Assembly: GCA_964472625.1 (NCBI GenBank)
Contig: CAYYLM010000005.1
Coordinates: 15,576 to 79,575, forward strand
DNA: 64,000 nucleotides
Source of the DNA: an uncultured Dehalococcoidales bacterium
GTDB lineage: Bacteria > Chloroflexota > Dehalococcoidia > Dehalococcoidales > UBA5760
Reading direction: 5' to 3'
Below, piece after piece: positions 10,296-60,337 of the stretch. Position 1 is the first letter of the stretch. Every line of letters starts with the position of its first letter. The notes below the pieces were generated by a model, which saw only the letters and a list, made by a program, of their open reading frames with translations, searched no databases and was not told the origin of the DNA. The position numbers were made by a program, and so were the translations under genes.

Positions 10296-10358
10296 TTTAT
10301 ACCTCGCTTCCGGTAGCAGCTTTGCCTTAACGAAGGATAGCCCTAAAGACAGCCAAAG

Positions 10359-17831: not shown

Positions 17832-18071
17832 CTAGCCTTGGCAAGGACTCTTGGCAGTATCAACCACACCGATGGCAAAGTCAGGACAGACCATCCCGCA
17901 GATATCACACTTGGTACATTTTGAGTTATCACTGATATAGACCGGATGGTACCCCTGGCTATTAATCTCCGTCGATTCAAAGAGAATGTGCTTTGGGCAA
18001 AACTCAATACAGAAGCCACACCCCTTACACCGCTCCGGTATGATAATTACCTCTTTAGTCTCTGGCTTCAT
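17832..18071 (-). CDS. 2-oxoacid:ferredoxin oxidoreductase, delta (2x[4Fe-4S] ferredoxin) subunit
   Basis: Motifs are CKGCGFCIEFCP and CTKCDICGMVCP. The ORF is open to 18125, but the ATG at 18071 follows AAGGGGCAAAGGTGAT. Confidence 0.8.
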   Translation of the reverse strand: MKPETKEVIIIPERCKGCGFCIEFCPKHILFESTEINSQGYHPVYISDNSKCTKCDICGMVCPDFAIGVVDTAKSPCQG

Positions 18072-18241
18072 ATCACCTTTGCCCCTTACTTTCCACAGAA
18101 CATTCCGTGAGGATTTGACAACCACGGCACAATGATAAGAAATCTTAGCATACGCTTACCCCCATCGACAAATCCGGGCTTGGCTTGCTTCTCACCACCG
18201 ATGGAAAATATGCTACAATAGGCTTAATCCTGGAGTGGGAA

Positions 18242-19246: not shown

Positions 19247-20283
19247 ATAAGCCCAAGGTAGGTATTATCAACGTTTCCGGTTACACCGGCGTCGAGCTAG
19301 CCCGGCTCCTTTCCCAGCACCCGGGGGTAGCGCTTACCTCGGTTACCGGGCGGAGTAGCGCCGGAAAGAAGTTGGGCGAGGTCTTCCCCCACCTAGCTGA
19401 CCTAGCGCTAACTATTGAGCCCGAGCTGAGTGAGGTTAGCCTCGCTTTCTCCGCCATGCCCCATAAAGAAAGCGCTAAAGAGGTAATACCACTGCTCAGC
19501 CGTGGTATTAAGGTGGTGGACCTGAGCGCCGATTTCCGCCTCAAGGACGCCACCGAGTACCCCGCTTGGTATGGATTTACCCACCCCGAGCCACAATTGC
19601 TCAGTCAAGCGGTATATGGACTACCTGAGCTATACCGCCGTGAGATAGCTGCTGCACAACTGGTGGCTAACCCCGGTTGCTATCCCACCGGGGCGATACT
19701 GGCTCTAGCTCCGGCCGTGAAAGCCGGAATAATTGAGCCGGAGATTATTATTGACAGTAAATCGGGGGCATCAGGTGCCGGTAGAACCCTGAGCCTACCG
19801 ACTCACTTTGCTGAAGCCAACGAAGATGCCAGCGCCTACGCTTTAGACGGGCACCGACATTTAGCTGAGATTACCCAGGAGCTCAGGCTACTTCGTCCCC
19901 AACTGCCAGCTGCGGTAACCTTTGTACCCCATCTCGTACCAATGACCCGGGGGATACTAACCACTGGCTACGCCCATCTAGCCTCGGGCAGGATAGCCAG
20001 TGGCAGGAGGGGAACCGGGGAGGTATTTCAGCTCTACCAAGACTTCTATCGGGATGAGCCCTTTGTCCGGGTGGTGGCGCACCCTCCCCACACCAAACAC
20101 ACCTGGGGCGCTAACACCTGCTTCATCCACCCCACCCTTGACCTGAGGACCGGCCGGCTCATCGTCATTAGCGCTATTGACAATCTGGTTAAGGGAGCAG
20201 CCGGTCAGGCAGTCCAGGACATGAACATCATGCTGGGGCTACCTGAGGCAACCGGACTCGGGGCAGCGGCTATTTACCCGTAA
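19243..20283 (+). CDS. argC: N-acetyl-gamma-glutamyl-phosphate reductase
   Basis: GIINVSGYTGVEL, SADFRL, ANPGCYPTG (active-site Cys) and AIDNLVKGAAGQAVQ are present. The ATG at 19243 overlaps the channel gene stop (ATGA), with AAGGAG 9 nt upstream. Confidence 0.92.
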   Translation: MNKPKVGIINVSGYTGVELARLLSQHPGVALTSVTGRSSAGKKLGEVFPHLADLALTIEPELSEVSLAFSAMPHKESAKEVIPLLSRGIKVVDLSADFRLKDATEYPAWYGFTHPEPQLLSQAVYGLPELYRREIAAAQLVANPGCYPTGAILALAPAVKAGIIEPEIIIDSKSGASGAGRTLSLPTHFAEANEDASAYALDGHRHLAEITQELRLLRPQLPAAVTFVPHLVPMTRGILTTGYAHLASGRIASGRRGTGEVFQLYQDFYRDEPFVRVVAHPPHTKHTWGANTCFIHPTLDLRTGRLIVISAIDNLVKGAAGQAVQDMNIMLGLPEATGLGAAAIYP

Positions 20284-36163: not shown

Positions 36164-36853
36164 ATGAAGCTAGTTTTTATCCCTGGAGCCGCTTGTGGTA
36201 AGAGGGCGTGGCTGTGTCAGGCCCTATATTTTGCTGATTCGGAAGTGATTGCCCTGCCTGGTCATCCTGAAGGTAAGCCCTGCTCCAGCGTTGATGGTTA
36301 CGTGGCGTGGCTGCGGGGCTACCTTGAGGAGCAGTCGCATCAGGATGTCGTTCTAGCCGGTCATTCTATGGGGGGTGCTGTGGTTCAGCAGTACGGGCTG
36401 AAGCATGGCGATGGGATAAAGGCTTTGGTTTTAATTGGCACCGGAGCTAGACTCAGGATTCACCCTGACCTGCTTGAGGCAATTAGGGGTATGATCGATA
36501 GTAAGCGGGCATGGCGGGAGTATTTGGAAGAGCGTCATCGTAACGCAGTGCCTGAAGTTAGGCGGACCATAATTGAAGAGCGGCTGCGCATTGGGCCGGC
36601 GGTGATGCTGAACGACCTGCTCGCCTGTGATAAGTTTGACATGCTGGCGGAGGTCCATAATATCAAGCTGCCGACGCTGGTTATCGGTGGCAGTGAAGAC
36701 GACCTGACACCCGTAAAATATGCGCACTATCTAACGAGCCAGATTAAGGGAGCCCGTGAGGTTATCGTTCCCGGGGCAGCTCACTGGGTGCTCACCGAGA
36801 AACCGAAAGAGGTTAATCAGGCGATAGAGCGCTTTCTTGCCGAGCTTGCCTGA
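36164..36853 (+). CDS. Alpha/beta-fold hydrolase
   Basis: 229 aa with the nucleophile elbow GHSMGG and a C-terminal His (GAAHW) typical of the fold. Confidence 0.7.
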   Translation: MKLVFIPGAACGKRAWLCQALYFADSEVIALPGHPEGKPCSSVDGYVAWLRGYLEEQSHQDVVLAGHSMGGAVVQQYGLKHGDGIKALVLIGTGARLRIHPDLLEAIRGMIDSKRAWREYLEERHRNAVPEVRRTIIEERLRIGPAVMLNDLLACDKFDMLAEVHNIKLPTLVIGGSEDDLTPVKYAHYLTSQIKGAREVIVPGAAHWVLTEKPKEVNQAIERFLAELA

Positions 36854-38681
36854 GTGCAGCGTGTTTCTGCCGGCAGGCTGGATGACGGCGCTGGAGACCA
36901 CAGGCACTGCAGTCCCGATAACGGCAATCTGGGGTTTCCTGGTTTTTGAGGGCGTTTTTAAATTCTCGCTTGAGGAAGGCTTGGGTTACTCCAATATCTA
37001 TGTGAGCCCAGGGTAACGGCTCGTCCAGGGATAGTTCCCGCTGGGCATAGAAACTAGGTTCAAGTCCGGTCTCCTGGAAGGCACGGAGCCAGTTTTCGTA
37101 ATTAAAGTGCTCGCTCCAGCCGTCGAAGGTGTTACCCAGTTGCCAGGCGTGATGGATAACCCTGCCTAACCGGCGGTCGCCTCGTGACATAGCGGCTTCA
37201 AGCTGGCTTACCTTTGGGTCGTTCCAGGATAGCCTGACCTCCTTACGGCGCAGCCTCTGTTTCAGAAGCTCAATCTTGGCGTTTAGCTGCTCTTCGCTTT
37301 CCTGAGTCACCCACTGAAAGGGGGTGTGCGGTTTGGGCACGAAGGTGGACAGGCTGACCCTTATCTGGGGTCTCCGGCCCCTGGTTCTTTTCCCTAGGGA
37401 GCTGATTTTGTCTATCAGGTCGGCTATTGCCTCAATATCGTCCCTAGTCTCGTTAGGCAGGCCAAGCATAAAGTAGAGCTTGAGAGCGTTCCAGCCACGG
37501 CTGAAGGCTTCGGCAGCGGTTCCCAGGATGGTATCCTCGGAGGTGTTCTTGTTGATTGCTTGCCTGAGTCGCTGGCTACCGGCCTCAGGGGCAAAGGTGA
37601 GCCCGGTTCTTTTGTGGGTGGCTAGAGAGTCGAGTAATCTAAGCGATAGGTTATCAATCCGCAGACTGGGCAGTGACAGGATGAGATTCTGGTCTTGATA
37701 GCGTTGGAACAGGCTGGCTACCAGCTCGTCAAGGTGGGGGTAGTCGCTGGTGCTTAAGGAAACCAGGGAGAATTCGTTATAGCCACAGTTAGCAATAAGC
37801 TCACCGACTGCCCTGAGCACCTCCTCTGGGGAGCGTTCCCGCACCGGACGGTATATGTTTCCCGCCTGGCAGAAGCGGCAGCCGCGGCTACAGCCCCGCT
37901 GAATCTCAACGGCTCCCCGGTCGTGGGTAATCTCGATATAGGGGACAACCGGTCTGGTGGGTGGTGGTGGTAACTCGTTTACTAGCTGCCTTTCAATACG
38001 GGGTCTAGCCTCGGTTACAGTGGGGGTGATGCTTTGGAAAAGACCGCTGGCCTCGTAGGCTACCTGGTAGAGACTGGGTACGTAGATACCGGCTACCTGC
38101 GCCAGCCGGCGCAAGCGCTCTTCTCTAGGGGCCATCTCCTTTTTCCAGTCCCGGAGGGAGCTAAGTAGCTCAAGGACAGCCTCTTCGCCGTCCCCGATTA
38201 CGAAGCCGTCAATGAAGTCTGCCATCGGCTCGGGGTTTAGGGCGCAGCTACCACCGGCGATGACCAGGGGGTGGGAGACACTTCTTTCTGAGGCGAGCAG
38301 TGGAATCCGGGCGAGGTCGAGCATATTGAGCACGTTGGTATAGGTGAGTTCGTAGCCCAGGGAAAAGCCGATGATGTCGAAATCCTGCAAGGGGTGCTTG
38401 GATTCCAAGCTGAAGAGCGGAATACCGCTACTGCGGAGTTGGGCAGCCATATCGGGCCAGGGAGCAAAGGCCCTTTCCGCTAGTACATCCGGCTGGCTAT
38501 TGAGTAGCTCGTAGAGGATGTGTATCGCCAGGGTGGACATCCCGAGCTCGTACAGGTCCGGGTAGGAGAGGACAATCCGGAGCGGGGTCTTGTCCCAGTC
38601 TTTGGTGACGCTGTTCCACTCGCCGCCGGTATAGCGGGCGGGCTTAATCACTTGGCTCAAAACATTATCGAGCTCGGTCAA
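36813..38681 (-). CDS. B12-binding-domain radical SAM protein
   Basis: 622 aa. It has an N-terminal B12-binding-like domain (FDIIGFSLGYELTY) and a radical SAM site (EIQRGCSRGCRFCQAG). The TTG start follows AGGAG. The 3' end overlaps the convergent hydrolase gene by 41 nt. Confidence 0.85.
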   Translation of the reverse strand: MTELDNVLSQVIKPARYTGGEWNSVTKDWDKTPLRIVLSYPDLYELGMSTLAIHILYELLNSQPDVLAERAFAPWPDMAAQLRSSGIPLFSLESKHPLQDFDIIGFSLGYELTYTNVLNMLDLARIPLLASERSVSHPLVIAGGSCALNPEPMADFIDGFVIGDGEEAVLELLSSLRDWKKEMAPREERLRRLAQVAGIYVPSLYQVAYEASGLFQSITPTVTEARPRIERQLVNELPPPPTRPVVPYIEITHDRGAVEIQRGCSRGCRFCQAGNIYRPVRERSPEEVLRAVGELIANCGYNEFSLVSLSTSDYPHLDELVASLFQRYQDQNLILSLPSLRIDNLSLRLLDSLATHKRTGLTFAPEAGSQRLRQAINKNTSEDTILGTAAEAFSRGWNALKLYFMLGLPNETRDDIEAIADLIDKISSLGKRTRGRRPQIRVSLSTFVPKPHTPFQWVTQESEEQLNAKIELLKQRLRRKEVRLSWNDPKVSQLEAAMSRGDRRLGRVIHHAWQLGNTFDGWSEHFNYENWLRAFQETGLEPSFYAQRELSLDEPLPWAHIDIGVTQAFLKREFKNALKNQETPDCRYRDCSACGLQRRHPACRQKHAALRQARQESALSPD

Positions 38682-40005: not shown

Positions 40006-41286
40006 GTGACTACTGATTATAGACCAATGTGGACTAGTCTCGGCCTGGACCTTGAGGCGCATGATATCCTCCTGAACGTTCTGGGGCAGGCCTATCAGGA
40101 CACCTTCCTCTCCCAGAAGAACCGTCCTGAGGGCATGAGCTATCTTGACTTCGTGATGAGTGAGGTTCATGGTCTCCGGATTAAGGAGTTACAGGATGCC
40201 AGAAGTGAGGGGCGAAAGGTCATCGGCACCTTTTGCGTCTTTGTCCCGGATGAGCTTATTCTAGCCGTCGATGCCATTTCGGTGGGGCTGTGTGCCGGGG
40301 CTGAATTCGGGTTTGATGAGGCGGAGAGGCTGCTGCCTCGTAATACCTGTTCCCTGATAAAGTCCTTTTTTGGCTTTAAGCTGAACCGGGTTTGCCCCTA
40401 TATGGAGGCTGCCGACCTCTTGGTGGGCGAGACCACCTGCGACGGCAAGAAAAAGGCCTATGAAATCTTTAAGGGTATCCAGCCCAATATCTATGTCATG
40501 GAAGTCCCCCAGATGAAGACGGCCCAGGATAGAGCTTTGCTTAAGAGTGAGTATTTACGCTTCAAAGGAGAGCTGGAGAGGCTAACTGGTGTAACCATCA
40601 CTGCGGAGCGGCTTAAAAAGGGTATCAGCTTAGTCAACAGTCGCCGCGAGGCACTCTCCCGCTTGGCGGCGCTGCGGGCGGCTCGCCCGGCGCCCATCTC
40701 CGGTCTGGATGCCCTGCTCATAAATCAGGTTGCCTTCTATGACGACCCGGTGCGCTTCACTGGTGCCGTGAACAAAATCTGTGACGAGCTTGAGGGGCGG
40801 GTTGGCGCTGGCGAGGGGGTGTCTCCTAAAGGGACGCCCCGTATACTCGTCTCCGGCTGCCCTATGGCGGTGCCTAACTGGAAGCTAGCGGCAATTATCG
40901 AGGGCTCCGGCGGGGTAATCGTTGGGGAAGAGTCGTGTGTCGGGGAGCGGGGCACCAGGAACCTGGTGGTGGAGACCGGTAGCGATGTTGATACCCTGAT
41001 GGAGGCTATCGTGGACCGCTACTTCAAGGTTGATTGCGCCATCTTCACCCCCAACCCGGAGCGGCTCGACAATGTGGTCGATATGGTGGCGAGATATAAG
41101 GCTGACGGGGTTATCCACTACGCCCTTCAGTTCTGCTCACCCTATACGGTGGAGTCCTACCGGGTGGAGCAGGAGATATCTAGCCGGGGAATACCGGTAC
41201 TCAGGATTGAGACGGACTACTCTCCGGAGGATGTCGGTCAGCTAAAGACGCGAGCCGAAGCCTTTCTGGAGATGATACGGAAGTGA
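40006..41286 (+). CDS. 2-hydroxyacyl-CoA dehydratase/BcrC-family Fe-S protein, single-subunit type (double-cubane cluster protein DCCP-like reductase)
   Basis: 426 aa. Family motifs are KVIGTFCVFVPDELILA and VGETTCDGKKKAYE. Conserved Cys residues occur in SGCPMAV, EESCVGE and LQFCSPY. The GTG start follows AAGAAAGGA. Confidence 0.8.
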   Translation: MTTDYRPMWTSLGLDLEAHDILLNVLGQAYQDTFLSQKNRPEGMSYLDFVMSEVHGLRIKELQDARSEGRKVIGTFCVFVPDELILAVDAISVGLCAGAEFGFDEAERLLPRNTCSLIKSFFGFKLNRVCPYMEAADLLVGETTCDGKKKAYEIFKGIQPNIYVMEVPQMKTAQDRALLKSEYLRFKGELERLTGVTITAERLKKGISLVNSRREALSRLAALRAARPAPISGLDALLINQVAFYDDPVRFTGAVNKICDELEGRVGAGEGVSPKGTPRILVSGCPMAVPNWKLAAIIEGSGGVIVGEESCVGERGTRNLVVETGSDVDTLMEAIVDRYFKVDCAIFTPNPERLDNVVDMVARYKADGVIHYALQFCSPYTVESYRVEQEISSRGIPVLRIETDYSPEDVGQLKTRAEAFLEMIRK

Positions 41287-42029
41287 CTAGCGCCGGGCTT
41301 GATGTGGGCTCACGCACCATTGGCCTCGTTCTGTTTGACGGCGGGGTTGTGGACTCGGTGGTTACGGATACCGGGATTAAGCCTCTTGAGCGGTGCCAGC
41401 AGCTTCTTGACGGCCGGGGCTACCGCCGGCTTGTGGTGACCGGTTACGGTCGCCACCTGGTAGCCCCCTTGTTGGGCGGCGAGGTTATCTCCGAGATCAG
41501 CGCTTATGCCGCGGGTGCCCATTACCTCTATCATGACTCGGGCACGGTGATCGATATCGGCGGTCAGGACAGTAAGGTTATCCGGCTCTCCGACCAGGGA
41601 GCGGTGGTCAGGTTTGAGATGAACGACCGCTGTGCCGCCGGTACCGGTAAGTTCCTGGAGGTAATGGCACATACCCTGGAGGTCAGCTTGAGTGAGTTCG
41701 CTGAGCTTGCCTTAAGCGCTTCAAAATTTGTTCAGATAAACAGCCTGTGCACCGTTTTCGCCGAATCGGAGGTGGTCTCCCTTATTGCGCGCGGTGAGGA
41801 GGCTAGCGCCATCGCGCTGGCGTTACATCAGGCTGTTGCCAAACGTATCACGGGCATGGTTCACCGGGTCGGGCTTAAGGAAAGGGTCATCTTCGCTGGT
41901 GGGGTGGCCCGGAATCAGTGTCTTCACGAGCTTCTCAGCGACATGCTGGGTGTTGAGATTACTGTCCCTAGTGAGCCGCAGATTGTCGGCGCTCTTGGTG
42001 CTGCTCTCATGGCTGGCGGTGGGATATAA
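41283..42029 (+). CDS. BcrAD/BadFG/HgdC-type ATPase (CoA-enzyme activase / electron-transfer activator)
   Basis: 248 aa. It has ASKHA motifs GLDVGSRTIGLV, IDIGGQDSKVI and NDRCAAGTGKFLE (bridging-cluster Cys). A GTGA overlap couples it to the upstream gene. Confidence 0.88.
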   Translation: MTSAGLDVGSRTIGLVLFDGGVVDSVVTDTGIKPLERCQQLLDGRGYRRLVVTGYGRHLVAPLLGGEVISEISAYAAGAHYLYHDSGTVIDIGGQDSKVIRLSDQGAVVRFEMNDRCAAGTGKFLEVMAHTLEVSLSEFAELALSASKFVQINSLCTVFAESEVVSLIARGEEASAIALALHQAVAKRITGMVHRVGLKERVIFAGGVARNQCLHELLSDMLGVEITVPSEPQIVGALGAALMAGGGI

Positions 42030-42046
42030 ATACGGGCGGAGGTATT

Positions 42047-42589
42047 ATGCAGGTTTCAAACGGTAAGGCAGAGGAACGTTTTGAGGGTGGGGGCATAGTG
42101 CTTTTCTCGGCGGTGCGCCAGGCGCTGGATGCGCATCAGGTTCTTCGGGACGCTGGCTATGAGGCTCGGCTGGTTGCCCCGCCACCCCAGCTACGTAAGG
42201 GCTGTGATCTGGCGGTAGAGGTAAAGCTGGTGGAAAAGCCGGCTATTGAGCGGCTGCTCGGGCAGAAGGGCGTCGATTACCTGAGCCTTGAGCCGCTAAA
42301 GGTAAGCACTTCCCAGCTTCTGGAAATCGTGACGGTGACTGATTTCGGCAGGTGGCTCATGGTCAAGGCGGGCAATATGAAACTCACCTTCGCTAAGGAC
42401 AGTGGCGAGATTATGAACACCTCCGGTGGCGGCTGTCCTGACATTCCCTATCTCCACGCTGAGCTAGTTGGTAAATCGCTTACTGAGGCACCGCGACCAA
42501 GGCAAATCGGTTTTACTCTCTGTGCCCTGATGCTGGAGCAGGCGCTGCTTGAGGGTCTGAGGCTCTACGAAGGAGGTAGCCAGCGATGA
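42047..42589 (+). CDS. DUF3343 (putative Se/S carrier-like) domain fused to an uncharacterised C-terminal domain
   Basis: 180 aa. The N-terminal GIVLFSAVRQALDAHQVLRDAGYEARLVAPPPQLRKGCDLAVEV matches the DUF3343 pattern (conserved Cys in ..GC..A). I did not recognise the C-terminal roughly 95 aa (NTSGGGCPDIPYLHAEL). Confidence 0.6.
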   Translation: MQVSNGKAEERFEGGGIVLFSAVRQALDAHQVLRDAGYEARLVAPPPQLRKGCDLAVEVKLVEKPAIERLLGQKGVDYLSLEPLKVSTSQLLEIVTVTDFGRWLMVKAGNMKLTFAKDSGEIMNTSGGGCPDIPYLHAELVGKSLTEAPRPRQIGFTLCALMLEQALLEGLRLYEGGSQR

Positions 42590-43488
42590 TGCTTATTGCG
42601 GGCACTATCCCGATTAAAGACCTACCTCTGGTCGCGGGCAGGATGAAGAGGGAAGGCGATACCTTGGTTATCGCTGACTACAGTCTTCCCTGCGCTCAGG
42701 GAACTGGGGCAATGATTAGCGCCGCTCAAGCAACTACTGACTATCTCAAGCTTGCCCCACCGCAGGTAGTGGTCGCTGGGGATATTGGTGAGGGCGGGGG
42801 CAGTCGCCAGATTTACCAGTATCTTATCCAGAATGTGGCCCGGCTTTCCCCCAGGGTGCTGGCGCTACACTACTGCCTGCCGGATATGGCTCTAGCCAGG
42901 AGACTCTGTCGGGCGGTGGGAGAGTGTCACCCGAGACCGCTCCTGATTGCTGATGCCGGGTCGATGTACGCCGCTAAGGCCGCCGGTCTGGCTAGGGAGT
43001 TTGATGTTTTTACCCCGGATGCTACTGAGCTTGCCTTCCTGGCTGATGGGGAGGCGACCCATCCGGCTTATATTAACCGGCACCTATTTTGTGCTGATAT
43101 TACCCGGGTCCCAAGACTGATAGTAGCTGCTTATCGCCAGCGCAGTGCTGCCCGGCTGCTGCTGGTCAAGGGAGCCACTGACTATATCGCGCGCCACGGG
43201 GAGATTCTGGCTACTGTCGCCGAACCCGACGTTCCCGAGCTGGAGGCAATCGGCGGCACCGGTGATACCATCACTGGGCTACTTTCGGCGTTTGTCGCTT
43301 GTGGACTTGAGCTTCATGAGGCAGCCATAATCGCTGCCCGGGTAAACCGTACGGCGGGAAAATTGGCTCGGGTGACGGTAGCCAGCGGGGTCAAGCAGGT
43401 TATCAGCCAGTTTCCGGCGGTTTTTAAAGAGTATCTTTGTCGCTGGAGTGGAGTATGCTCAATCAAGGGAGGTAGCTACCATGAGTGA
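42586..43488 (+). CDS. Ribokinase-fold protein, YjeF_C / NAD(P)HX-dehydratase-like (or small-molecule kinase)
   Basis: 300 aa. FTPDATELAFLA, LLVKGATDYIA and EAIGGTGDTITGLLSAFVACGL correspond to YjeF_C/ThiM-type motifs. An ATGA overlap couples it to the upstream gene. Confidence 0.65.
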   Translation: MMLIAGTIPIKDLPLVAGRMKREGDTLVIADYSLPCAQGTGAMISAAQATTDYLKLAPPQVVVAGDIGEGGGSRQIYQYLIQNVARLSPRVLALHYCLPDMALARRLCRAVGECHPRPLLIADAGSMYAAKAAGLAREFDVFTPDATELAFLADGEATHPAYINRHLFCADITRVPRLIVAAYRQRSAARLLLVKGATDYIARHGEILATVAEPDVPELEAIGGTGDTITGLLSAFVACGLELHEAAIIAARVNRTAGKLARVTVASGVKQVISQFPAVFKEYLCRWSGVCSIKGGSYHE

Positions 43489-44056
43489 AATTGATGCCCG
43501 GGGGCTTCCCTGCCCCCACCCGGTTACTAAAACCAAGAAGGCACTGGAGGAAATAGAGTCGGGGCAAATCACCGTCCTGGTTGATAGCCCGGAGAGCTGT
43601 GAGAACGTGCGGCGGTTTGCCCAGAGCCAGGGCTGTCAGGTAGCGGTCAGGGAGGGGGAAGGGGTCTTTTATCTGGATATTACCAAAGGAGTTTCACCTC
43701 AAACTGAACTGAAGACAGGGGGTGGCGAGGTTGTTCTTATTACCAGCGACCAGTTCGGTGTCGGGGACGAGAGATTGGGTGAAATCCTGATGAATGCCTT
43801 CTTAAATACCCTGTGGGACTATGAGCCGAAGCCCGCTAAGCTACTCTTTATCAATAACGGCGTCCGGCTGACTACGGAGGGCTCTGAGGTCTTGGAGAGC
43901 CTAGCGCTACTTGAGAAAAAGGGGGTTCAGGTATTTTCTTGCGGTACCTGCTTGGAGTATTATAACCTTGGAGACAAGCTTAAGGTGGGGCTGGTGAGTA
44001 ACATGTATGCGACAGTAGATGCCCTGCTACAAGCGACTAAGGTTATTAAAATCTGA
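43481..44056 (+). CDS. yedF: YedF-type protein: TusA/SirA-like CPxP domain + DsrE-like domain (selenium/sulfur metabolism protein YedF family)
   Basis: MSEIDARGLPCPHPVTKTKKALEEI is the TusA-like active Cys. The C-terminal half has VVLITSDQFG...LFINNGVRL...CGTCLEYY. The ATG at 43481 follows AGGGAGG and overlaps the upstream stop by 8 nt. The ORF is open from 43448. Confidence 0.8.
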   Translation: MSEIDARGLPCPHPVTKTKKALEEIESGQITVLVDSPESCENVRRFAQSQGCQVAVREGEGVFYLDITKGVSPQTELKTGGGEVVLITSDQFGVGDERLGEILMNAFLNTLWDYEPKPAKLLFINNGVRLTTEGSEVLESLALLEKKGVQVFSCGTCLEYYNLGDKLKVGLVSNMYATVDALLQATKVIKI

Positions 44057-46352: not shown

Positions 46353-46976
46353 ATGCACAGCATCTTTAGTCGCCTTAAGCCGCCGGGTGGCACGGGGAAA
46401 AGAGACTGGCTGGGTGTAGTCCTCAAAGGGAGGGCGCTCCCGATACTGGGTATTACCCTGGTCGTGGTCATTACGGTTGGCATCTTTCTATATCGCGACC
46501 GGATTAGCGAGCTCGGGGTCTTGGGCTATCCCGGAGTCTTTGTGGTCAGCATGGTGTGGAACTCTACCGTGCTGGTGCCGATTCCCAGTTTCTGGACCTA
46601 TTTCTTTCTGGGTCAAATGTTTCAGCCGGCCCTGGTCGGGCTGGCTGGGGGGAGCGGAGCGGCGGTTGGTGAGCTGACTAGTTACCTAGCCGGGTATAGC
46701 GGACGGGTAATCCTGCAGGGGCAAAGGCGAATAAAGATGTACGATCGGGTGGAGAACTGGGTAAAGAAGTGGGGCTTTATTGTTATCTTTGGGTTTAACC
46801 TGGTGCCCTTCTTCCCCTTTGACCTAGTGGGGATAGCGGCTGGGGCCACCCGTTTCCCGCTGTGGAAGTTCTATCTTGCATGTCTGGCGGGCAGAACCTT
46901 ATCTTATGGTTTTATCGCTTGGTTTGGCTCTCAGGGGTGGGTGCCCCCGTTACCGTTTCTTAATCCTCCAGAGTAA
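46353..46976 (+). CDS. DedA/VTT-superfamily membrane protein (YqaA-like)
   Basis: 207 aa with multiple TM helices. GLAGGSGAAVGELTSYLAGYSGR resembles the YqaA/SNARE-associated-domain glycine-rich motif. Confidence 0.6.
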   Translation: MHSIFSRLKPPGGTGKRDWLGVVLKGRALPILGITLVVVITVGIFLYRDRISELGVLGYPGVFVVSMVWNSTVLVPIPSFWTYFFLGQMFQPALVGLAGGSGAAVGELTSYLAGYSGRVILQGQRRIKMYDRVENWVKKWGFIVIFGFNLVPFFPFDLVGIAAGATRFPLWKFYLACLAGRTLSYGFIAWFGSQGWVPPLPFLNPPE

Positions 46977-48209
46977 TACTGAGCTGGCAATAAGAGAGGC
47001 AAAAGAGGTTGAGAGCATCGCAGTGTAGCCCAGCCCGAATTGGCGGGCGTTAAAGAAGTCAATCATTGGCCCTTTGAGGCGGGCGAGGGCTGAGCCGCCG
47101 GCTGAAGCCAGATTGGTGAGGCCGATATACTTCCCGGCCTCACCCTTGGGAACCACGTCTACGGCCAGCGCCCAGTTGGTGCTCATCAGGCCGCCGAAGC
47201 CAATCCCCATCAGGATGGCACTGGTCAGGATGAACTGGTCGCTACGGAAGAAGAAGAGGAGTCCGATTCCCAGAGCGCCGATGAGTCCGGAAATAAGGCC
47301 AATGGATCTGCGCCCGAACCTGTCAGACAGGTGCCCGGCCGGGTAGACCATGCCGAGCATGCACAGGGAAGACACCAGGGTGAAGCTGCCCATGACGGCA
47401 GCCGGATTGGCGACCCCGAGATAGTCCCGGAAGAAGTAAAGCCCGAATGCCTGGAAGGCAGTCAGGGGAACGACGAAGAAGAGGCGGCACAGTACAAAGC
47501 GGATGAAATCAGGGTTTGCCTGAATGTCAATCCGGAAAGTTTTACGCAGGATCGATACCAGAGGTAGCTTGGGCCCACCGGCTCCAGGTGGCTCCTTAAC
47601 CAGAAACACGGTGGCGAGCATGGTGCCCAGAAAGACGGCACCCAGTATCCCTAGGCTCAGCCAGAGCCACCGGCTTCCCTCACCAAGAGAATAGTTCCCC
47701 ATTAGCTGACCTACTGCCCAGATGGCGATGCCCGCCCCCGCTATCTCGAGCAGTCCCTTCACCCCGGAGGCTAGTCCCCTTTTTCCCTCTGGTACTAGAT
47801 CGGGGAAAAGGGTGAGATAGGGCCCCAGCGCGGTATTGGCGCTAATCTGCAGCAGGTAGTAGATGGCAAAGAGGACGGCTAGGCTACCGGCTAGGCTGAT
47901 GCCGGGCAGAAACGCTAGCGTCAGTATCGCCCCGATGAGGATATAGGGTCGCCTTCGTCCCCATCTTGAGCCAGAGCGGTCGCTCATGGCGCCGGCTATG
48001 GGCTGGGTAACTATCGCCAGGATGAGGCCGGTAACGGTAAGCAGCCCGAGGTAGGTAGCCTGTCGGCCCGCCGGAACGAAGTCAGCGATGCGCAGGGGCA
48101 GAATGATGCTGTGCAGGCTGCTCCATAGCGCCGTCATCGCCAGGCCAAAGATGGTAATCTTGGCATAATCGAGGGGGCGAAACTCTCCCTTCTTGACGCT
48201 GGCATCCAT
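46950..48209 (-). CDS. MFS transporter
   Basis: 419 aa with about 12 predicted TM helices. MFS loop motifs are GAMSDRSGSRWGRRRP and LSDRFGRR. Confidence 0.8.
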   Translation of the reverse strand: MDASVKKGEFRPLDYAKITIFGLAMTALWSSLHSIILPLRIADFVPAGRQATYLGLLTVTGLILAIVTQPIAGAMSDRSGSRWGRRRPYILIGAILTLAFLPGISLAGSLAVLFAIYYLLQISANTALGPYLTLFPDLVPEGKRGLASGVKGLLEIAGAGIAIWAVGQLMGNYSLGEGSRWLWLSLGILGAVFLGTMLATVFLVKEPPGAGGPKLPLVSILRKTFRIDIQANPDFIRFVLCRLFFVVPLTAFQAFGLYFFRDYLGVANPAAVMGSFTLVSSLCMLGMVYPAGHLSDRFGRRSIGLISGLIGALGIGLLFFFRSDQFILTSAILMGIGFGGLMSTNWALAVDVVPKGEAGKYIGLTNLASAGGSALARLKGPMIDFFNARQFGLGYTAMLSTSFASLIASSVLLWRIKKR

Positions 48210-48362
48210 ATCTTGGCGGACCTCTAGCTAGTTACGGTTAAAGCATAGCAGAGGCAGGGCCACGAAACAATACGGTAATTTAGCCACGGTGCTTACAGCT
48301 CAAGTTTGCTTTTGTCCGATGCCATCAGCTATACTTTGGGGAGTCTGTGCCGGGGTTATCTT

Positions 48363-49406
48363 ATGAGTGAAATCAAGTCTCCTTATCTGGTGGATTGGGC
48401 AATAACCGGAAAGTGTGACCTTAGCTGCCGCCACTGCCGCGGTTTTCCTGAAGGAGAAATCTCTACGGCTAGAGCCAGCCGGCTCACCAGTGAGATAGCC
48501 GAGCTTAAGCCCGGCTGGGTGATTATTGAGGGCGGCGAGCCATTGCTGCGGGAGGACATCTTTGAGTTGTTGGGCTTGCTGCGAGAGCGTGGGCTTGAGG
48601 TTCACCTGATTACCAATGGTATGCTGATAAGCCCGGAGATAGTTAGCGGCCTTAAGCGGCTTGGGATAAGGGTGATGGTGAGCATTGATGGCGCCACCCC
48701 GGAAACCTATGAGAGGGTGAGACACGGCGCCAGCTTTGAGCAGGTGGTTCGCTCAGCGCGCGAATATGCCAGGGCCGGACTTCTGGAAGCAATTAACTTC
48801 TCTATTTTGAGGATGAACTACCCGGAAATAACGGCGGTTTTCAGATTGGCAAGCTCAATTGGGGCACCCAAGGTTACCCTGATCGGGCTTAAGCCGTGTG
48901 AGGACTATGCTGCCGAGCTTCTCTCTCCTCGAGAGTACAAAGAGGCCATCAGGCTTACCTGCCAGGCAGCACAGGAAACGGGGATTGAGTTTTTCTTTGA
49001 CGAGCCCTTCTTCTGGGCTACGGTGAAGGAGCGTAAGCTTAGCGCCAGGCTGCCAGACGAAGGTGCTGGCATCGTCGTTGCCGCTACCTCAGCCTGTGCC
49101 TTTGGCGACTACATTTTTATTGAGGTTAACGGCGATGTCAAGCCCTGCAGCTATACCTCGATGGTCGTCGGTAACGTCAGTGAAAAGTCACTGGTTAGAA
49201 TCTGGGATGAGATGCTGGCCTCCCGACTTATTAACCAGATTAAAGACCCGAAGACTAGAACCGGAGCCTGTCTCAATTGTAGATATCTGGAGGAGTGTAA
49301 GGGGTGTCGCTCCCGCACCTTTGCCCTTACCGGTGACTGGTTTGCCTCTGATCCCGTCTGCCCTTTGCACACTAAGATAACTTCAGTTAAGGAGGGGATT
49401 AAGTGA
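48363..49406 (+). CDS. Radical SAM enzyme with C-terminal SPASM domain
   Basis: The radical SAM site is WAITGKCDLSCRHCRG (CxxxCxxC), with GGEPLL. The SPASM Cys motifs are CAFGDYIFIEVNGDVKPCSY, GACLNCRYLEECKGCRSR and DPVCP. The ORF is open from 48306. The ATG at 48363 gives a typical N-terminus. Confidence 0.85.
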   Translation: MSEIKSPYLVDWAITGKCDLSCRHCRGFPEGEISTARASRLTSEIAELKPGWVIIEGGEPLLREDIFELLGLLRERGLEVHLITNGMLISPEIVSGLKRLGIRVMVSIDGATPETYERVRHGASFEQVVRSAREYARAGLLEAINFSILRMNYPEITAVFRLASSIGAPKVTLIGLKPCEDYAAELLSPREYKEAIRLTCQAAQETGIEFFFDEPFFWATVKERKLSARLPDEGAGIVVAATSACAFGDYIFIEVNGDVKPCSYTSMVVGNVSEKSLVRIWDEMLASRLINQIKDPKTRTGACLNCRYLEECKGCRSRTFALTGDWFASDPVCPLHTKITSVKEGIK

Positions 49407-50458
49407 GAGTTATTGGGATTGACCCGGGAACAGGCAGCTTTGATTTCTTTGGTATGGAGGGGGAGGAGGTTATCATAGATACTACCGTGCCGGTGCCTGA
49501 GGTTGCCCGGAACCCCAAGGTGCTCCTGGATACCGTAAGAAGTGTTTTCCCACTGGATATGATCGTCGGCCCTTCTGGTTATGGCATGCCGGTAACCCCG
49601 ATCAAGGGTATCACCGAGCGGCAACTAACGATGATGGTGCCCGATGACAAGAGCATCCCGCTATATGATGGTATCCGGATGGTGGTTCGGCTGATGCAGA
49701 AAGAGGGCTTCCCCCTCTATTTCACCCCGGGGGTAATTCATCTCCCCACCGTACCCCTCTACCGCAAGGCGAACAAGATGGACATGGGCACCGCCGATAA
49801 GGTCTGCTGCACCGTCCTGGCGGTGAGAGATCAGGCAGAGCGCTACGGCATTGATTACACGGAGACCTCCTTTATCCTGGCTGAGGTCGGCTATGCCTTT
49901 AACGCCGTCATCGGGGTTAAGGGGGGTAAGATAGTCGATGGGCTGGGAGGGACCGCCGGTGGCCCCGGGTTTATCACCGTGGGTAACATGGACTCCGAGC
50001 TGGCGGTGAGGTTGGGAAAGTTTCCTGGGGTGGTGCTTTATAGTGGCGGGGCCAAAGACGTGAGTGGCCAGGAGGATTTAACCCCCGAGGAGCTAGCACG
50101 CCATCCCGAGAGATACGCTGGCGCCTGGAACATGCTCCTAGAGAGCATTGCCAAAGGCGTAGCGGCGATGATGGTTAGCGTGGCCAAGCCGAGGGAGATT
50201 CTCCTTTCCGGCCGGCTTTCCCGGGTTCCCGAGATTGCCCGGGCGCTGGAGGTTAAGCTGGCTCAATTTGGAAAGGTGCGTCGGCTGGGGAGGCAGGCTA
50301 GAATCGCCAAGGAGGCAGCGGAAGGAGCCTATATTATCGGGGAGGGGTTAATGGGTGGCAAGTATCAGGGCATTATTGACTCTCTGGAGCTTAAGGGCGC
50401 CCGCGGCACAATGTATGATTATGTCCTGCTCAAAGGGGTTAAGGTCGAGCGGCCGTAG
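49403..50458 (+). CDS. DUF1464-family ASKHA-fold (sugar-kinase/Hsp70/actin, butyrate-kinase-like) protein
   Basis: 351 aa with MRVIGIDPGTGSFD (phosphate-1), DMGTADK and GLGGTAGGPGF. The GTG start overlaps the radical SAM stop (GTGA). Confidence 0.7.
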   Translation: MRVIGIDPGTGSFDFFGMEGEEVIIDTTVPVPEVARNPKVLLDTVRSVFPLDMIVGPSGYGMPVTPIKGITERQLTMMVPDDKSIPLYDGIRMVVRLMQKEGFPLYFTPGVIHLPTVPLYRKANKMDMGTADKVCCTVLAVRDQAERYGIDYTETSFILAEVGYAFNAVIGVKGGKIVDGLGGTAGGPGFITVGNMDSELAVRLGKFPGVVLYSGGAKDVSGQEDLTPEELARHPERYAGAWNMLLESIAKGVAAMMVSVAKPREILLSGRLSRVPEIARALEVKLAQFGKVRRLGRQARIAKEAAEGAYIIGEGLMGGKYQGIIDSLELKGARGTMYDYVLLKGVKVERP

Positions 50459-50578
50459 GCATTTCTTTTAAAGTCTCCCCATTTGAGCTTGTTGCGAAAC
50501 TCTCCCTATAATGAGTGCTTATCATCGTCACAGTCCCGCCTATTCATTAAAGGAGAGGCAATCCTCAACATCTTTATT

Positions 50579-57638: not shown

Positions 57639-58487
57639 TCACGGCCTTTGCTGACGCTCCCGGTAGGCTCCGATGTAACGCCGGGCATAGGCGTCTTGGT
57701 TAAGGAGAAGGTCAGCGGCTAAAACCGCCGGGCGCACTTTGGCTACGTCCACAATGAGGCAGGTTACGCCGGTGGCAATAGCCATGGCCACCAAGTTGCT
57801 ATTGAGCAGATTGCGGTCAGGTAAGCCGAAGGAGATGTTACTTACGCCCAGTGTCAGGTTTACGCCCAGTTCAGCCTTAATACGCCCTATTGTTTCCAGG
57901 GTGACCAAGCCCGACCCGGGGTCGGCTGCCACCGCCAGAGCCAGGCAATCAATGATAATGTCCTCGGGGGGGATGCCCACCGCCCCGGCACGCTCGATAA
58001 TCTTGCGGGCGATGGCAAGTCGTCGCTCAGCGTCTTTGGGGACGCCCTGTTCGTCCTGCGCGAGACCGATAACCGCCGCCCCGTATTCCTTGACCAGGGG
58101 CAAAACCTTCTTTAGGGAGTGCTCTTCACCGGTTACCGAGTTAATGAGCGGCTTACCCTGGTAGACCTTAAGGGCTGCTTCCAGGGCCTCAGGATTGGGG
58201 CTATCAAGGCATAGTGGTACCTCGACTGTTTCCATTACCAGTTGCACTGCTTGGGGGAGCCGGCTTACCTCGTCAATCCCGACACTAGCGACATTAATAT
58301 CGATGATGTCCGCCCCGGCTTGAACCTGAGATAGGGCCTCCTCACGGACAATCTCCAGATCGCCGGCCCTGAGGGCTTCAGACATCCTTTTCTTACCCGT
58401 AGGGTTAATCCGTTCCCCAATAAGTACGGTGGGGTGGCCGTGACCAATGATTACCTCCCTGGTGGCACTTGAAACCCTAGTTTCCAT
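57639..58487 (-). CDS. Methyltetrahydrofolate:corrinoid methyltransferase (pterin-binding, AcsE/MeTr-like)
   Basis: 282 aa with IGERINPTGKK, ADIIDINV, LCLDSPNPEALEAAL, PLINSVTGE and GVSNISFGLP. Confidence 0.85.
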   Translation of the reverse strand: METRVSSATREVIIGHGHPTVLIGERINPTGKKRMSEALRAGDLEIVREEALSQVQAGADIIDINVASVGIDEVSRLPQAVQLVMETVEVPLCLDSPNPEALEAALKVYQGKPLINSVTGEEHSLKKVLPLVKEYGAAVIGLAQDEQGVPKDAERRLAIARKIIERAGAVGIPPEDIIIDCLALAVAADPGSGLVTLETIGRIKAELGVNLTLGVSNISFGLPDRNLLNSNLVAMAIATGVTCLIVDVAKVRPAVLAADLLLNQDAYARRYIGAYRERQQRP

Positions 58488-60337
58488 TAGCCAATCCCCT
58501 TTCTCTTCCCGTGTGCCAGTCGGTATTCCCCTAAGGAGCTTGCCTGGATGAAGGTGTGCCTGAAATCAGGGGCGCTGGCTAGTTCAATATAGTTGACTCT
58601 AGCAGCCACAGCTTGAGCACTAGCTCGCTGCTGGTGGGAAATAAGAGCCAGCTTGGCACCCATACCGGCCGCATTGCCTACCTGCCGGAAGTGGCCCAGA
58701 GGCAGCGAGGGCAGCAGACCAATAGTTATGGCGCTGGCCACATCGATGTAACTACCGAAGGCACCGGCGATTATTACCCGGGTGATTTCCGCTTCGGTGC
58801 GCTGGTTAGCCTCTAACAGTACCTGAATGCCGGTGCGGATGGCGGCCTTAGCCAGCTGTAACTGGCGCACGTCCTGCTGGGTGATGACGATAGCTGGCTT
58901 GCCTCCCCTTTCCTTCTCACTGACCAGGACGAACTCGCGTTGCTTCTGGCGGTGGCGCAGGCGGGGGTGGTTATCCATCATGTGGCCGTCTTCAGCGATG
59001 ATGCCAGCCAGGTGAAGTTGGGCAATAGCGTCCAGAATACCTGAGCCGCAGAGACCCACCGGTGGTGCCCCCTCAATGGTCTGATACTGGATGTCGTCAC
59101 CAGCAATGCGTAGCCGCTCGATAGCCCCGCGGGCCGCCCGCATTCCGTCCTTGATGTGACCACCCTCGAAGGCAGGGCCGGAGGCACAGGAAACGCTGCT
59201 TATCTGGCCGCCATCGATTAGGGAGACCTCGGTATTGGTTCCGATGTCTATGGCGAGTAGTATGCCCTCAGCCTGCCAAGCTGCGGTGGCCAGCAGCATA
59301 GCCACGTGGTCAGCGCCAACAAATCCGGCGATGTTGGGTAGTAGGTGAGCGTAGGCGCCGGGAGCCATCTTGAGTCCCAGGTCACGGGCCTTTAAGTCTA
59401 TTGCCTGGCTAGCGGCGGGCACGAAGGGAGAGCGGGCAAGTTGGGTTAGCGGCAGACCCAGTAATAGGTGGTGCATGGCGGTGTTACCGACGATTACGAC
59501 GTCCGTGATTTCAGCCACTCTAGCCTCAACTTGGGCGCATAGCTTGCTGGCTAGCTGGTTAATAGCCTTAGCGGCTAGCCTTTGCAGTCGCCTCCCTTCA
59601 GTCGCTGAGCTTAAAGCGTGGGTAATACGGCTGACGACGTCCTCGCCGTAGCCTATCTGGGGGTTCATCATGCCTTGAGCCGCCAGAATCCGACCCTGGC
59701 TCAGGTCAACTAGGTAGCCGGCAATCTTGGTGGTGCCCAGATCTATCGCTAGCCCTAGCTTATGGCTTGGCCAGGGGCCAATGGCTACTACCTCGTCGTC
59801 GCGAACCGTAACCTGACACTGCCACTCCCAAGAACGGAGCTGTGTCGAAAGCTGCCGCCGGACATCGATGTCAATAGTGCGGCAGGCTAGCTGGTGCTGC
59901 TGGTTCAGCGTCGCTAGCAGGCGCTCGCCATCTCCTCGCAGGTCTGATAGCGACGGGGCGGTTAGTTTCACTCGATAGGCGGTGACTACCGGCTCCGGTG
60001 GGACTGCTATCTCCAGTCCTTCTACCTGGGTGCGTTGGGGGGTGGTCATCGACTCGGTAGGCACACTCACCCTGACATTACTGGTGGGGTAGGTTTGACA
60101 GGCGAGGCGCCAGCCAGCCGCCAGTTCTTGAGGTGAAAAGACCTCCCGCTCAATAGCGGTGGCTTCTGAAACCGTACCGTCTAGGACTTTTACCCTGCAG
60201 GCATGGCAGGTCCCTCTACCGGCGCATAGGCTTACGATGTCGGCACCTACTTGGCGAGCACAGGTTAGCAGAGACTTGCCCACCCGGCACTCCCCTCGGC
60301 GACCGATCGGCACAAAATCAACGTTATAAGCTGTCAT
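58487..60337 (-). CDS. ASKHA-domain corrinoid reductive activase (RACo-like) with N-terminal plant-type [2Fe-2S] ferredoxin
   Basis: 616 aa with CAGRGTCHACRVKV and LACQT. The large C-terminal ASKHA/DUF4445-type region has LAIDLGTTKIAG, AIDIGTNTE and GPAFEGG. Its stop overlaps the downstream ATG (TAATG). Confidence 0.8.
   Translation of the reverse strand: MTAYNVDFVPIGRRGECRVGKSLLTCARQVGADIVSLCAGRGTCHACRVKVLDGTVSEATAIEREVFSPQELAAGWRLACQTYPTSNVRVSVPTESMTTPQRTQVEGLEIAVPPEPVVTAYRVKLTAPSLSDLRGDGERLLATLNQQHQLACRTIDIDVRRQLSTQLRSWEWQCQVTVRDDEVVAIGPWPSHKLGLAIDLGTTKIAGYLVDLSQGRILAAQGMMNPQIGYGEDVVSRITHALSSATEGRRLQRLAAKAINQLASKLCAQVEARVAEITDVVIVGNTAMHHLLLGLPLTQLARSPFVPAASQAIDLKARDLGLKMAPGAYAHLLPNIAGFVGADHVAMLLATAAWQAEGILLAIDIGTNTEVSLIDGGQISSVSCASGPAFEGGHIKDGMRAARGAIERLRIAGDDIQYQTIEGAPPVGLCGSGILDAIAQLHLAGIIAEDGHMMDNHPRLRHRQKQREFVLVSEKERGGKPAIVITQQDVRQLQLAKAAIRTGIQVLLEANQRTEAEITRVIIAGAFGSYIDVASAITIGLLPSLPLGHFRQVGNAAGMGAKLALISHQQRASAQAVAARVNYIELASAPDFRHTFIQASSLGEYRLAHGKRKGIG

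Follow-up and report, generated by a model that had tools for sequence, protein, structure and literature searches.

The HgdC/BcrAD activators are ATPases of the ASKHA fold (acetate and sugar kinases, Hsc70, actin) that are encoded beside an iron-sulfur radical or low-potential enzyme, and the ASKHA-type reactivases of B12 radical enzymes offer a further analogue of an ATP-dependent partner for a radical enzyme. Radical S-adenosylmethionine (SAM) enzymes with a SPASM domain often act on proteins or peptides, and radical SAM maturases are also encoded beside tungsten or quinohemoprotein enzymes. Here we analyzed a 64-kb stretch of DNA from an uncultured Dehalococcoidales bacterium (hereafter the window), in which a SPASM-type radical SAM gene is directly followed by a gene of the family DUF1464 (PF07318; Table 1). 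An earlier note on this DNA, which suggested an ATP-dependent partner or activase for a radical SAM maturase, had called the pairing undescribed and DUF1464 without assigned function. Both statements agree with our searches: queries with DUF1464, COG2441 and PF07318 gave nothing beyond incidental mention, no description of the pairing was found in the searchable literature, and queries for methanopterin or p-aminobenzoate (pABA) linked to radical SAM or butyrate kinase returned nothing relevant. We tentatively read the pair as a two-enzyme small-molecule module for the biosynthesis of a pterin one-carbon (C1) carrier of the folate or methanopterin type, or of one of its building blocks.

The radical SAM protein matches the Pfam families Radical_SAM (PF04055, 66 bits against a cut-off of 29.5) and SPASM (PF13186, 35 bits, cut-off 21.5), and its gene ends in GTGA over the start of the 351-residue DUF1464 protein, as the earlier note had described. 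A mechanical list of open reading frames (ORFs) starts the same frame at TTG 48306; the start at 48363 is the likely one, because the relatives L002 (GTG) and L003 (TTG) carry start codons exactly where the window gene has its ATG. The cluster motif CDLSCRHC (CX3CX2C, residues 18-25) and the seven auxiliary-cluster cysteines of the SPASM domain (CX9-16GX4C ... CX2CX5CX2-3C ... C) are invariant in the 10 orthologues of alignment A3, as are the motifs DWAIT and FFDEPFF, which are specific to this subfamily. Only 17 residues precede the cluster motif, with no N-terminal extension of the type of the RRE, the recognition element found in systems for ribosomally synthesized and post-translationally modified peptides (RiPPs), and a Pfam scan detected no domain besides Radical_SAM and SPASM, and nothing RRE- or PqqD-like.

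When scored against NCBIfam models, the protein falls in none of the characterised clades, as the proposal in the earlier note required. The top match is AhbD (TIGR04545), aligned over the full length with 196 bits (cut-off 500); NirJ2 (156 bits, cut-off 500), TIGR04053 (153 bits, cut-off 395), NirJ1 (126 bits, cut-off 650), GeoRSP and AhbC are also among the best matches, all below their cut-offs. MftC (109 bits, cut-off 265) and PqqE (86 bits, cut-off 381) lie further down, and for StsB, WgkB and ScmE/F the protein is far under every cut-off. Orthologues from other phyla behave similarly, with 138-172 bits on AhbD/NirJ models (cut-offs 500-650). Judged by these profile scores, the protein is a member of a distinct subfamily that lies outside every characterised clade and nearest to AhbD/NirJ. 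The closest solved structures by sequence are BlsE (PDB 7vob) and PqqE (6c8v), with E values of about 1e-12. The AlphaFold2 (AF2) model is poor (pLDDT 62, iron-sulfur regions disordered), and because of this the Foldseek search that it allowed, with BlsE, SkfB, PqqE, anSME and SuiB among the structural neighbours, confirms the superfamily only.

The two genes are translationally coupled. The radical SAM TGA overlaps the DUF1464 GTG (49403-49405), so that the junction reads GTGA, and a putative Shine-Dalgarno sequence lies inside the 3' end of the first gene. Upstream, the pair is flanked by a VTT/DedA gene and by an MFS transporter gene (46950-48209) that is transcribed divergently, and downstream by prfA, prmC and etfBA. 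A scan for consensus promoters and terminators found no promoter 5' of the radical SAM gene and no terminator 3' of the DUF1464 gene; it located a promoter-like site (TTGAGC-18-TATAAT, 50483-50512) 3' of the DUF1464 stop and upstream of prfA. Given these flanks and the separate promoter-like site before prfA, the pair looks like a bicistronic unit of its own. A possible promoter for this unit, below the threshold of the scanning tool (Table 1), is kept in the upstream region of L002, whose radical SAM protein is 90% identical to that of the window. The conserved bases could, on this comparison, be a promoter rather than an ORF. This bears on the 15-codon ORF to which the earlier note had drawn attention, which exists and overlaps the radical SAM start by ATGA; it is however not conserved, since in L002, the closest relative, CTG replaces its ATG and a 1-nt indel breaks its frame, and more distant orthologous loci carry no similarly placed small ORF. 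We thus rejected it as a precursor gene, and the search of related loci for a conserved small ORF, which the earlier note had envisaged, found none beside the pair.

In order to evaluate conservation, alignment A1, composed of 67 diverse DUF1464 proteins, was employed to search one genome per GTDB species. At least 595 stretches encode a DUF1464 relative, and the best 79 loci were analyzed with up to 10 kb of flank. Eleven of the 79 species-level loci belong to a radical SAM-linked group. A radical SAM orthologue lies directly upstream of DUF1464 in L002, L003, L005, L006, L007, L009, L010, L022 and L066 (318-712 bits, phmmer), that is, in 9/9 informative genome loci; L004 retains only the C-terminal end of the radical SAM gene at a contig edge, and L008 is cut. 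The genomes that carry the pair are Dehalococcoidales/Dehalococcoidia, a metagenome-assembled genome (MAG) of Candidatus Auribacterota, three MAGs labelled "bacterium" and the Euryarchaeota archaeon UBA186. The junction is a 4-nt overlap, a longer overlap or a gap of at most 14 nt in eight of the nine loci, with a spacing of about 110-130 nt in L022. An apparent fusion of the two genes in L009 was rejected, as the ORF merely runs through and the radical SAM protein is encoded in another frame.

The reverse survey was performed with a profile of the 10 orthologues of A3 (archaeal sequence first), which was scanned over JGI metagenome contigs and at most 80 of the best-scoring loci analyzed. The scores are bimodal: 13 contigs (L081-L091, L093, L094) reach 249-566 bits and the rest at most 220 bits. 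DUF1464 adjoins the radical SAM gene in ten of these contigs (L081-L088, L090, L093; in L083 only the first 34 DUF1464 codons fit on the contig). L091 and L094 end within the radical SAM gene, and L089 has no DUF1464 in the 366 nt available downstream, with 68 nt available upstream. The paralogues at or below 220 bits have no DUF1464 nearby in any case and resemble generic AhbD/NirJ; one of them, L092, reaches 307 bits on the AhbD model, above the window protein. Thus, this radical SAM subfamily occurs with DUF1464 in every locus with enough flank to tell. Two contigs show other arrangements: in L090 (833-2913) DUF1464 precedes the radical SAM gene, with a VTT/DedA gene directly upstream as near the window pair, and L093 (2-2089) carries two radical SAM copies in divergent orientation, with DUF1464 after one of them.

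The flanks of the pair vary between unrelated housekeeping genes (MFS, ftsE/ftsX, coaX, Cu-ATPase, alaS). In L022 the pair lies between ftsE and ftsX-coaX, in L066 between a Cu-ATPase gene and a Band-7/PRPP-synthetase stretch, and a divergent gene without annotation is common to L009 and L010. Across the radical SAM-linked loci, the survey of neighbours found no third conserved gene, and in particular no conserved transporter, protease or small gene. The MFS and VTT/DedA genes were rejected as parts of the system because, apart from one VTT gene in the distant L090, they recur only among close relatives. Proteins identical or 94% identical to those of the window occur on Dehalococcoidales contigs. 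Among the best-scoring 120 DUF1464 homologue clusters, mostly metagenomic, identity to the window protein is 77-100%, and those with a named source come from Dehalococcoidales/Chloroflexota or subsurface metagenomes; the co-transcribed radical SAM protein is 64-94% identical across its best 120 matches. The pairing is therefore real and conserved across phyla, and since the adjacency holds at this distance, DUF1464 is not a random neighbour of the radical SAM gene. The linkage that the earlier note had made a test of its proposal is nonetheless one-sided. From the radical SAM gene to DUF1464 it has no clear exception, whereas from DUF1464 to such a radical SAM gene it holds in only 11/79 loci.

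DUF1464 itself is a small family (560 representatives at 50% identity clustering). The window protein matches PF07318 with 316.8 bits (E = 2e-94, cut-off 23.5), its residues 5-342 covering profile positions 1-326 of 327. The three motifs quoted in the earlier note, GIDPGTGS, DMGTADK and GGTAGGPGF, are all present, and GIDPGT, the N-terminal DxGxT phosphate-1 loop, is invariant in the family. The assignment of DMGTADK to phosphate binding has to be revised: it is an invariant family-specific motif, while profile alignment to butyrate kinase 2 (Buk2) identifies the ASKHA phosphate-2 strand as ILAEVGY (about residues 158-164). The AF2 model, calculated from the 88-sequence alignment A2, is of high confidence (pLDDT 92.3, pTM 0.92). 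Foldseek comparison to the PDB places Buk2 first (1saz, 1x9j), then acetate and propionate kinases, then ROK/NagK sugar kinases; the butyrate, acetate and propionate kinase matches have TM values of 0.55-0.65, 13-16% identity and a Foldseek probability of 1.0, and no HgdC-type activator is found in the top 50. At the sequence level a single-sequence search of the PDB gave nothing, and the DUF1464 profile reaches only Buk2 (E = 1e-3).

Despite this architecture, the protein does not belong to the acetate/butyrate kinase family: the NCBIfam butyrate kinase model, whose cut-off is 222 bits, gives only 15, and the His that serves catalysis in the (A/C)H(L/M)G(N/G)G signature is absent. BcrAD_BadFG (PF01869) and TIGR00241 give no match at E <= 0.01. 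The invariant catalytic set comprises D7, R121, K122, N124, D127, D132, K133, C135, E161, D197 and E199. C135 is the only conserved Cys (85/86 sequences); C136 occurs in 71% of sequences and C16 in 59%, with Phe at position 16 in the window protein. On the basis of the model, DUF1464 is best described as a separate ASKHA family of kinase-like architecture with catalytic residues of its own, and the many invariant charged residues in the alignment point to an enzyme that would act on a defined small substrate, and not to a chaperone.

The majority of the family lies in a different context, since 68/79 loci have no such radical SAM gene nearby. For the 79 loci we clustered every ORF lying up to 6 kb from DUF1464 and confirmed recurrent neighbours by Pfam and NCBIfam. 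At least one marker of tetrahydromethanopterin (H4MPT) or methanofuran metabolism was found in 39/79 loci, 34 of them with a strict marker. Recurrent neighbours include an MptH-like protein related to dihydropteroate synthase (DHPS; DUF6513 + Pterin_bind + DUF4346, TIGR00284 186 bits), the beta-ribofuranosylaminobenzene-5'-phosphate synthase family (beta-RFAP, MptG; TIGR00144 219 bits, cut-off 113.5) and the GTP cyclohydrolase MptA (306 bits, cut-off 220), often HPPK-fused in bacteria. They also comprise an MptE-like kinase, DUF447, an ATP-grasp_3 protein, an MptN-like RimK ligase, DUF2193, and the H4MPT-dependent Ftr, Mch and Mtd (FTR, MCH, Mpt_N); further ORFs, assigned by eye without a family scan, we take to be subunits A/B of formylmethanofuran dehydrogenase. 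The gene just before DUF1464 on the same strand is MptH-like in 7 loci, an ATP-grasp gene in 6 and MptG in 5. Loci without a marker are mostly from Methanoperedens, Methanosarcinales and Nitrososphaeria.

DUF1464 holders comprise methanogens, anaerobic methanotrophic archaea (ANME), Bathyarchaeia, Asgard groups and Nitrososphaeria, as well as Anaerolineae, Desulfobacterota, Methylomirabilis, Thermoleophilia and Gemmatimonadota. Several of these taxa are groups with reported H4MPT/methanofuran-linked genes, which have been described in Bathyarchaeota, an Asgard group, Chloroflexi, Deltaproteobacteria, Actinomycetes and NC10, with methanogens and Methanoperedens also listed (PMC5020050).

In H4MPT-type loci of Chloroflexota, HPPK (fused to MptA) and PTPS genes accompany DUF1464. 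Among bacterial H4MPT-type loci, apparent fusions of MptA with a bacterial-type HPPK (FolK) domain are found at L030:6150-7622, L016:6513-8000, L017:1197-2675, L028:7110-8567 and L036:4895-6403, and a PTPS/QueD-like gene then follows the fusion, which suggests a hybrid archaeal/bacterial pterin branch. DUF2193 (520 aa; conserved in archaea according to Pfam) occurs in L014, L018, L024, L026, L027, L032, L035, L037 and L039; in Chloroflexota it repeatedly adjoins a methylene-H4MPT dehydrogenase-like gene (Mpt_N) near DUF1464, as in L037:4342-5901. Like DUF1464, it is uncharacterised and connected with C1 metabolism of the H4MPT type. The Anaerolineae contig L015 carries two DUF1464 paralogues 7 kb apart (9606-10976 and 17968-19356), both in an H4MPT-type context.

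In a neighbour-joining tree calculated without support values, the bacterial radical SAM-linked DUF1464 proteins form one clade, sister to all others, and the archaeal radical SAM-linked L066 falls among archaeal H4MPT-type sequences. The two groups have the same residue at 73 alignment positions that are at least 85% conserved, including R121, K122, N124, D127, T130, D132, K133, C135, E161, D179, D197, E199 and K303. Only 8 positions discriminate between them, and L066 has the H4MPT-type residue at 8/8. As so many positions are shared and so few discriminate, both groups have one catalytic apparatus in common and probably also the same kind of substrate.

These observations underlie our tentative reading of the pair as a small-molecule cofactor module. 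It would be autonomous and bicistronic, and both proteins would act on a small molecule and not on a ribosomal peptide; we see no sign of a peptide substrate for the pair. DUF1464 would use ATP to phosphorylate a metabolite, or to activate it in some other way, at a hydroxyl or carboxyl group. The radical SAM enzyme, whose relatives AhbD, NirJ and BlsE are decarboxylases of tetrapyrrole side chains or sugar acids, could carry out a radical step, either oxidation or decarboxylation, on that metabolite, just before or after the ATP step. Since H4MPT clusters house the rest of the DUF1464 family, and essentially all conserved polar residues are shared with it, the pathway would most likely lead to a C1 carrier of the pterin type or to a building block of such a carrier. 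The window encodes a methyl-tetrahydrofolate:corrinoid/Fe-S protein methyltransferase, and therefore its host appears, by sequence, to use a carrier of the folate type. A shared pterin or arylamine part is thus a natural candidate, and in the folate-using Dehalococcoidales host the module may serve a part common to folate and methanopterin.

Several points weigh against this interpretation. Kinase activity of DUF1464 is suggested by the fold of the model, an argument that names no substrate, and the catalytic His of Buk2 (VVAHMGGG) is replaced by the invariant Glu161 of ILAEVGY. For the radical SAM enzyme, the poor model gives no pocket information. No H4MPT or folate gene adjoins the pair in the window or in most radical SAM-linked loci, and a tblastn search of the 64-kb window and the radical SAM-linked loci with proteins of the H4MPT clusters detected none of these proteins. 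A partial exception is L006 (Dehalococcoidia), where folK (HPPK, 137 bits) lies 1.7-4 kb downstream of the pair, together with ORFs that, read from their sequence without a family scan, are presumably PTPS/QueD-like and TyrA-like; L088 has the order aroE, radical SAM, DUF1464, S49 peptidase, aroC. These two loci are not evidence on their own, because, by a rough estimate, chance would place folate or shikimate genes beside the pair in about 0.9 of 17 loci. Finally, organisms with H4MPT-type DUF1464 apparently lack this radical SAM gene, so that the same two reactions cannot take place in both clades.

A more specific version, which draws its support from gene context and which we regard as rather improbable, is that DUF1464 is one of the missing enzymes of the arylamine branch (pABA/ribofuranosyl-aminobenzene) of methanopterin and folate in organisms that lack PabABC, with the AhbD-like radical SAM enzyme recruited in Dehalococcoidales and a few other anaerobes. 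DUF1464 would then provide, for example, the ATP-dependent activation in a phenol-to-aniline or dehydroquinate-derived route, as White and Porat et al. reportedly proposed for methanogens, and the pair would give an oxygen-independent radical route to a folate building block.

Other explanations were weighed against the cofactor module. The first follows the earlier note and makes DUF1464 an ATP-dependent partner of the radical SAM enzyme, either as an activase, reductive activator, reactivase or chaperone in the manner of HgdC/BcrAD. The translational coupling, the strict adjacency from the radical SAM side and the ASKHA ATPase fold would all fit, as would the absence of the acetate-kinase catalytic His, which means that classical carboxylate-kinase chemistry is not guaranteed for DUF1464. 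However, most of the 68 loci without such a radical SAM gene are H4MPT clusters with non-radical enzymes, and the same residues are conserved in both clades. The BcrAD/HgdC-type role that the earlier note had favoured finds no counterpart in the protein, which has no BcrAD_BadFG match, has small-molecule kinases and not HgdC as its nearest structures, and carries one conserved Cys; in the HgdC structure, two conserved Cys per subunit ligate the inter-subunit [4Fe-4S] cluster, and with a single one such a bridging cluster is not possible. In addition, the DNA 7 kb upstream encodes a true HgdC-type activase, which comes with a double-cubane partner of its own. An activase mechanism for a maturase is thus not supported, because DUF1464 works without the radical SAM enzyme in most lineages, resembles small-molecule kinases and is devoid of activase hallmarks, and we consider this explanation unlikely.

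It is also quite unlikely that the radical SAM enzyme is a protein maturase that modifies the neighbouring DUF1464 enzyme, as anSME does with sulfatases. Such a role would agree with the presence of anSME, SkfB and SuiB among the structural neighbours, with the co-occurrence in every sufficiently flanked locus, and with the nearly invariant Cys135 beside the invariant DMGTADK. Nevertheless, Cys135 and the remaining conserved residues are also found in most DUF1464 proteins, which have no such radical SAM gene, no residue conserved in the radical SAM-linked clade is missing from L066-type sequences so as to mark a modification site, and the best sequence relatives of the enzyme (AhbD, NirJ, BlsE) act on small molecules.

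That the radical SAM protein is a divergent AhbD/NirJ of the siroheme-dependent heme or heme d1 pathway, with DUF1464 an unrelated neighbour, is very unlikely: AhbD, NirJ2 and NirJ1 do provide the best full-length NCBIfam matches, but at 138-196 bits the scores lie far from the cut-offs of 500-650, the unlinked paralogue L092 scores higher on AhbD, and the neighbouring ORFs scanned with Pfam, which were not every flanking ORF, include no ahb, nir, siroheme or tetrapyrrole genes. Hardly credible is a RiPP system in which the radical SAM enzyme matures a precursor peptide, such as the product of the 48319-48366 ORF, with DUF1464 as an accessory enzyme, since for all that SPASM domains are common in RiPP maturases and a mini-ORF does overlap the start, this ORF is lost in the closest relative and absent in others, there is no RRE/PqqD-type domain or gene and no conserved transporter or protease beside the pair, and every equivalog model of RiPP maturases scores far below its cut-off.

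Other genes of the window are collected in Table 1. The methyltransferase and the AcsV-like activase are Wood-Ljungdahl-type methyl-branch components. In the five-gene run, the third gene encodes a Se/S-carrier-like protein, the fourth a carbohydrate-kinase/NnrD-like protein and the fifth YedF, a TusA-DsrE selenium-metabolism protein (TIGR03527, 223 bits); the run may represent a selenium- or sulfur-linked reductase system.

Table 1. Coordinates of the radical SAM-DUF1464 pair, its control elements and other features of the window.
Feature	Position	Strand	Evidence
Radical SAM/SPASM gene from ATG to TGA (49404-49406), product of 347 aa	48363..49406	+	Pfam, NCBIfam, alignment of 10 orthologues
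DUF1464 (PF07318) gene, 351 aa, GTG start overlapping the radical SAM stop	49403..50458	+	PF07318, AF2, Foldseek
AAGGAGG, putative Shine-Dalgarno of the DUF1464 gene, inside the radical SAM 3' end, 7 nt before GTG	49389..49395	+	Read from the sequence; function inferred
Possible promoter, TTGCTT, 18 nt, TATACT	48306..48335	+	Conserved in L002; below scan-tool threshold
15-codon ORF MPSAILWGVCAGVIL, ATGA overlap with the radical SAM start, judged not a gene	48319..48366	+	Overlaps putative promoter and 5' untranslated region
Methyl-tetrahydrofolate:corrinoid/Fe-S protein methyltransferase and AcsV-like corrinoid reductive activase	57639-60337	-	NF005719, 286 bits against a cut-off of 259; AcsV-like, 421 bits, below the cut-off of 800
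Five-gene operon-like run	40006-44056	+	Family-model scores
Double-cubane-cluster anaerobic reductase, first gene of the run		+	NF040772, 479 bits
BcrAD/HgdC-type activase, second gene of the run	41283-42029	+	PF01869, 171 bits; TIGR00241, 228 bits
Second radical SAM protein, unrelated to the first; TIGR03960 family, B12-binding	36813-38681	-	786 bits

To our knowledge, several steps of H4MPT biosynthesis, as well as the archaeal or anaerobic origin of the pABA-derived moiety, are still without assigned genes, and DUF1464 is a candidate for such steps that is strongly linked by context. The radical SAM protein of the pair represents a new SPASM subfamily whose ASKHA partner is obligate; few SPASM enzymes act on small molecules, and it would be an addition to them. 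Dehalococcoidales are hard to culture, and the supply of cofactors shapes the ecology of this group; from a highly conserved module with a cofactor link one would learn which vitamins these bacteria produce and which have to be acquired. The analysis also corrects the automatic names "putative mycofactocin maturase MftC" and "predicted butyrate kinase", which some sources give to the radical SAM and the DUF1464 protein, respectively.

Compared to known systems, the radical SAM protein is closest to AhbD, NirJ and AhbC, which it resembles in size (about 340 aa), in the extreme N-terminal position of CX3CX2C, in a full 7-Cys SPASM domain without an RRE domain, and in full-length profile matches that nonetheless remain below family level. 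Unlike AhbD/NirJ, its family has its own motifs and no tetrapyrrole gene context, and is obligately paired with DUF1464. BlsE, a cytosylglucuronate decarboxylase, also acts on a small molecule; it is a twitch-type enzyme and does not have a full SPASM domain, and identity to BlsE and PqqE is 24-25% over partial alignments. PqqE requires PqqD and a peptide, neither of which is present at the pair.

DUF1464, in turn, finds its best structural matches in Buk2 and the acetate and propionate kinases, Buk2 being the only PDB family reached by profile, but its invariant RKxNxxDMGTADKxC and GPSGYG do not occur in the butyrate, acetate or propionate kinases. It shares with the HgdC/BcrAD activators the ASKHA fold and a place beside an iron-sulfur enzyme, and differs from them in the missing PF01869 match and Cys pair and in its structural neighbours; a true double-cubane reductase with its HgdC-type activase sits in the same window at 40006-42029. 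The H4MPT biosynthesis clusters (MptA, MptE, MptG, MptH-like, DUF447, ATP-grasp), outside which the window locus and the other radical SAM-linked loci lie, hold about half of the surveyed DUF1464 loci, where the gene often directly follows that of an MptH-like, MptG or ATP-grasp protein.

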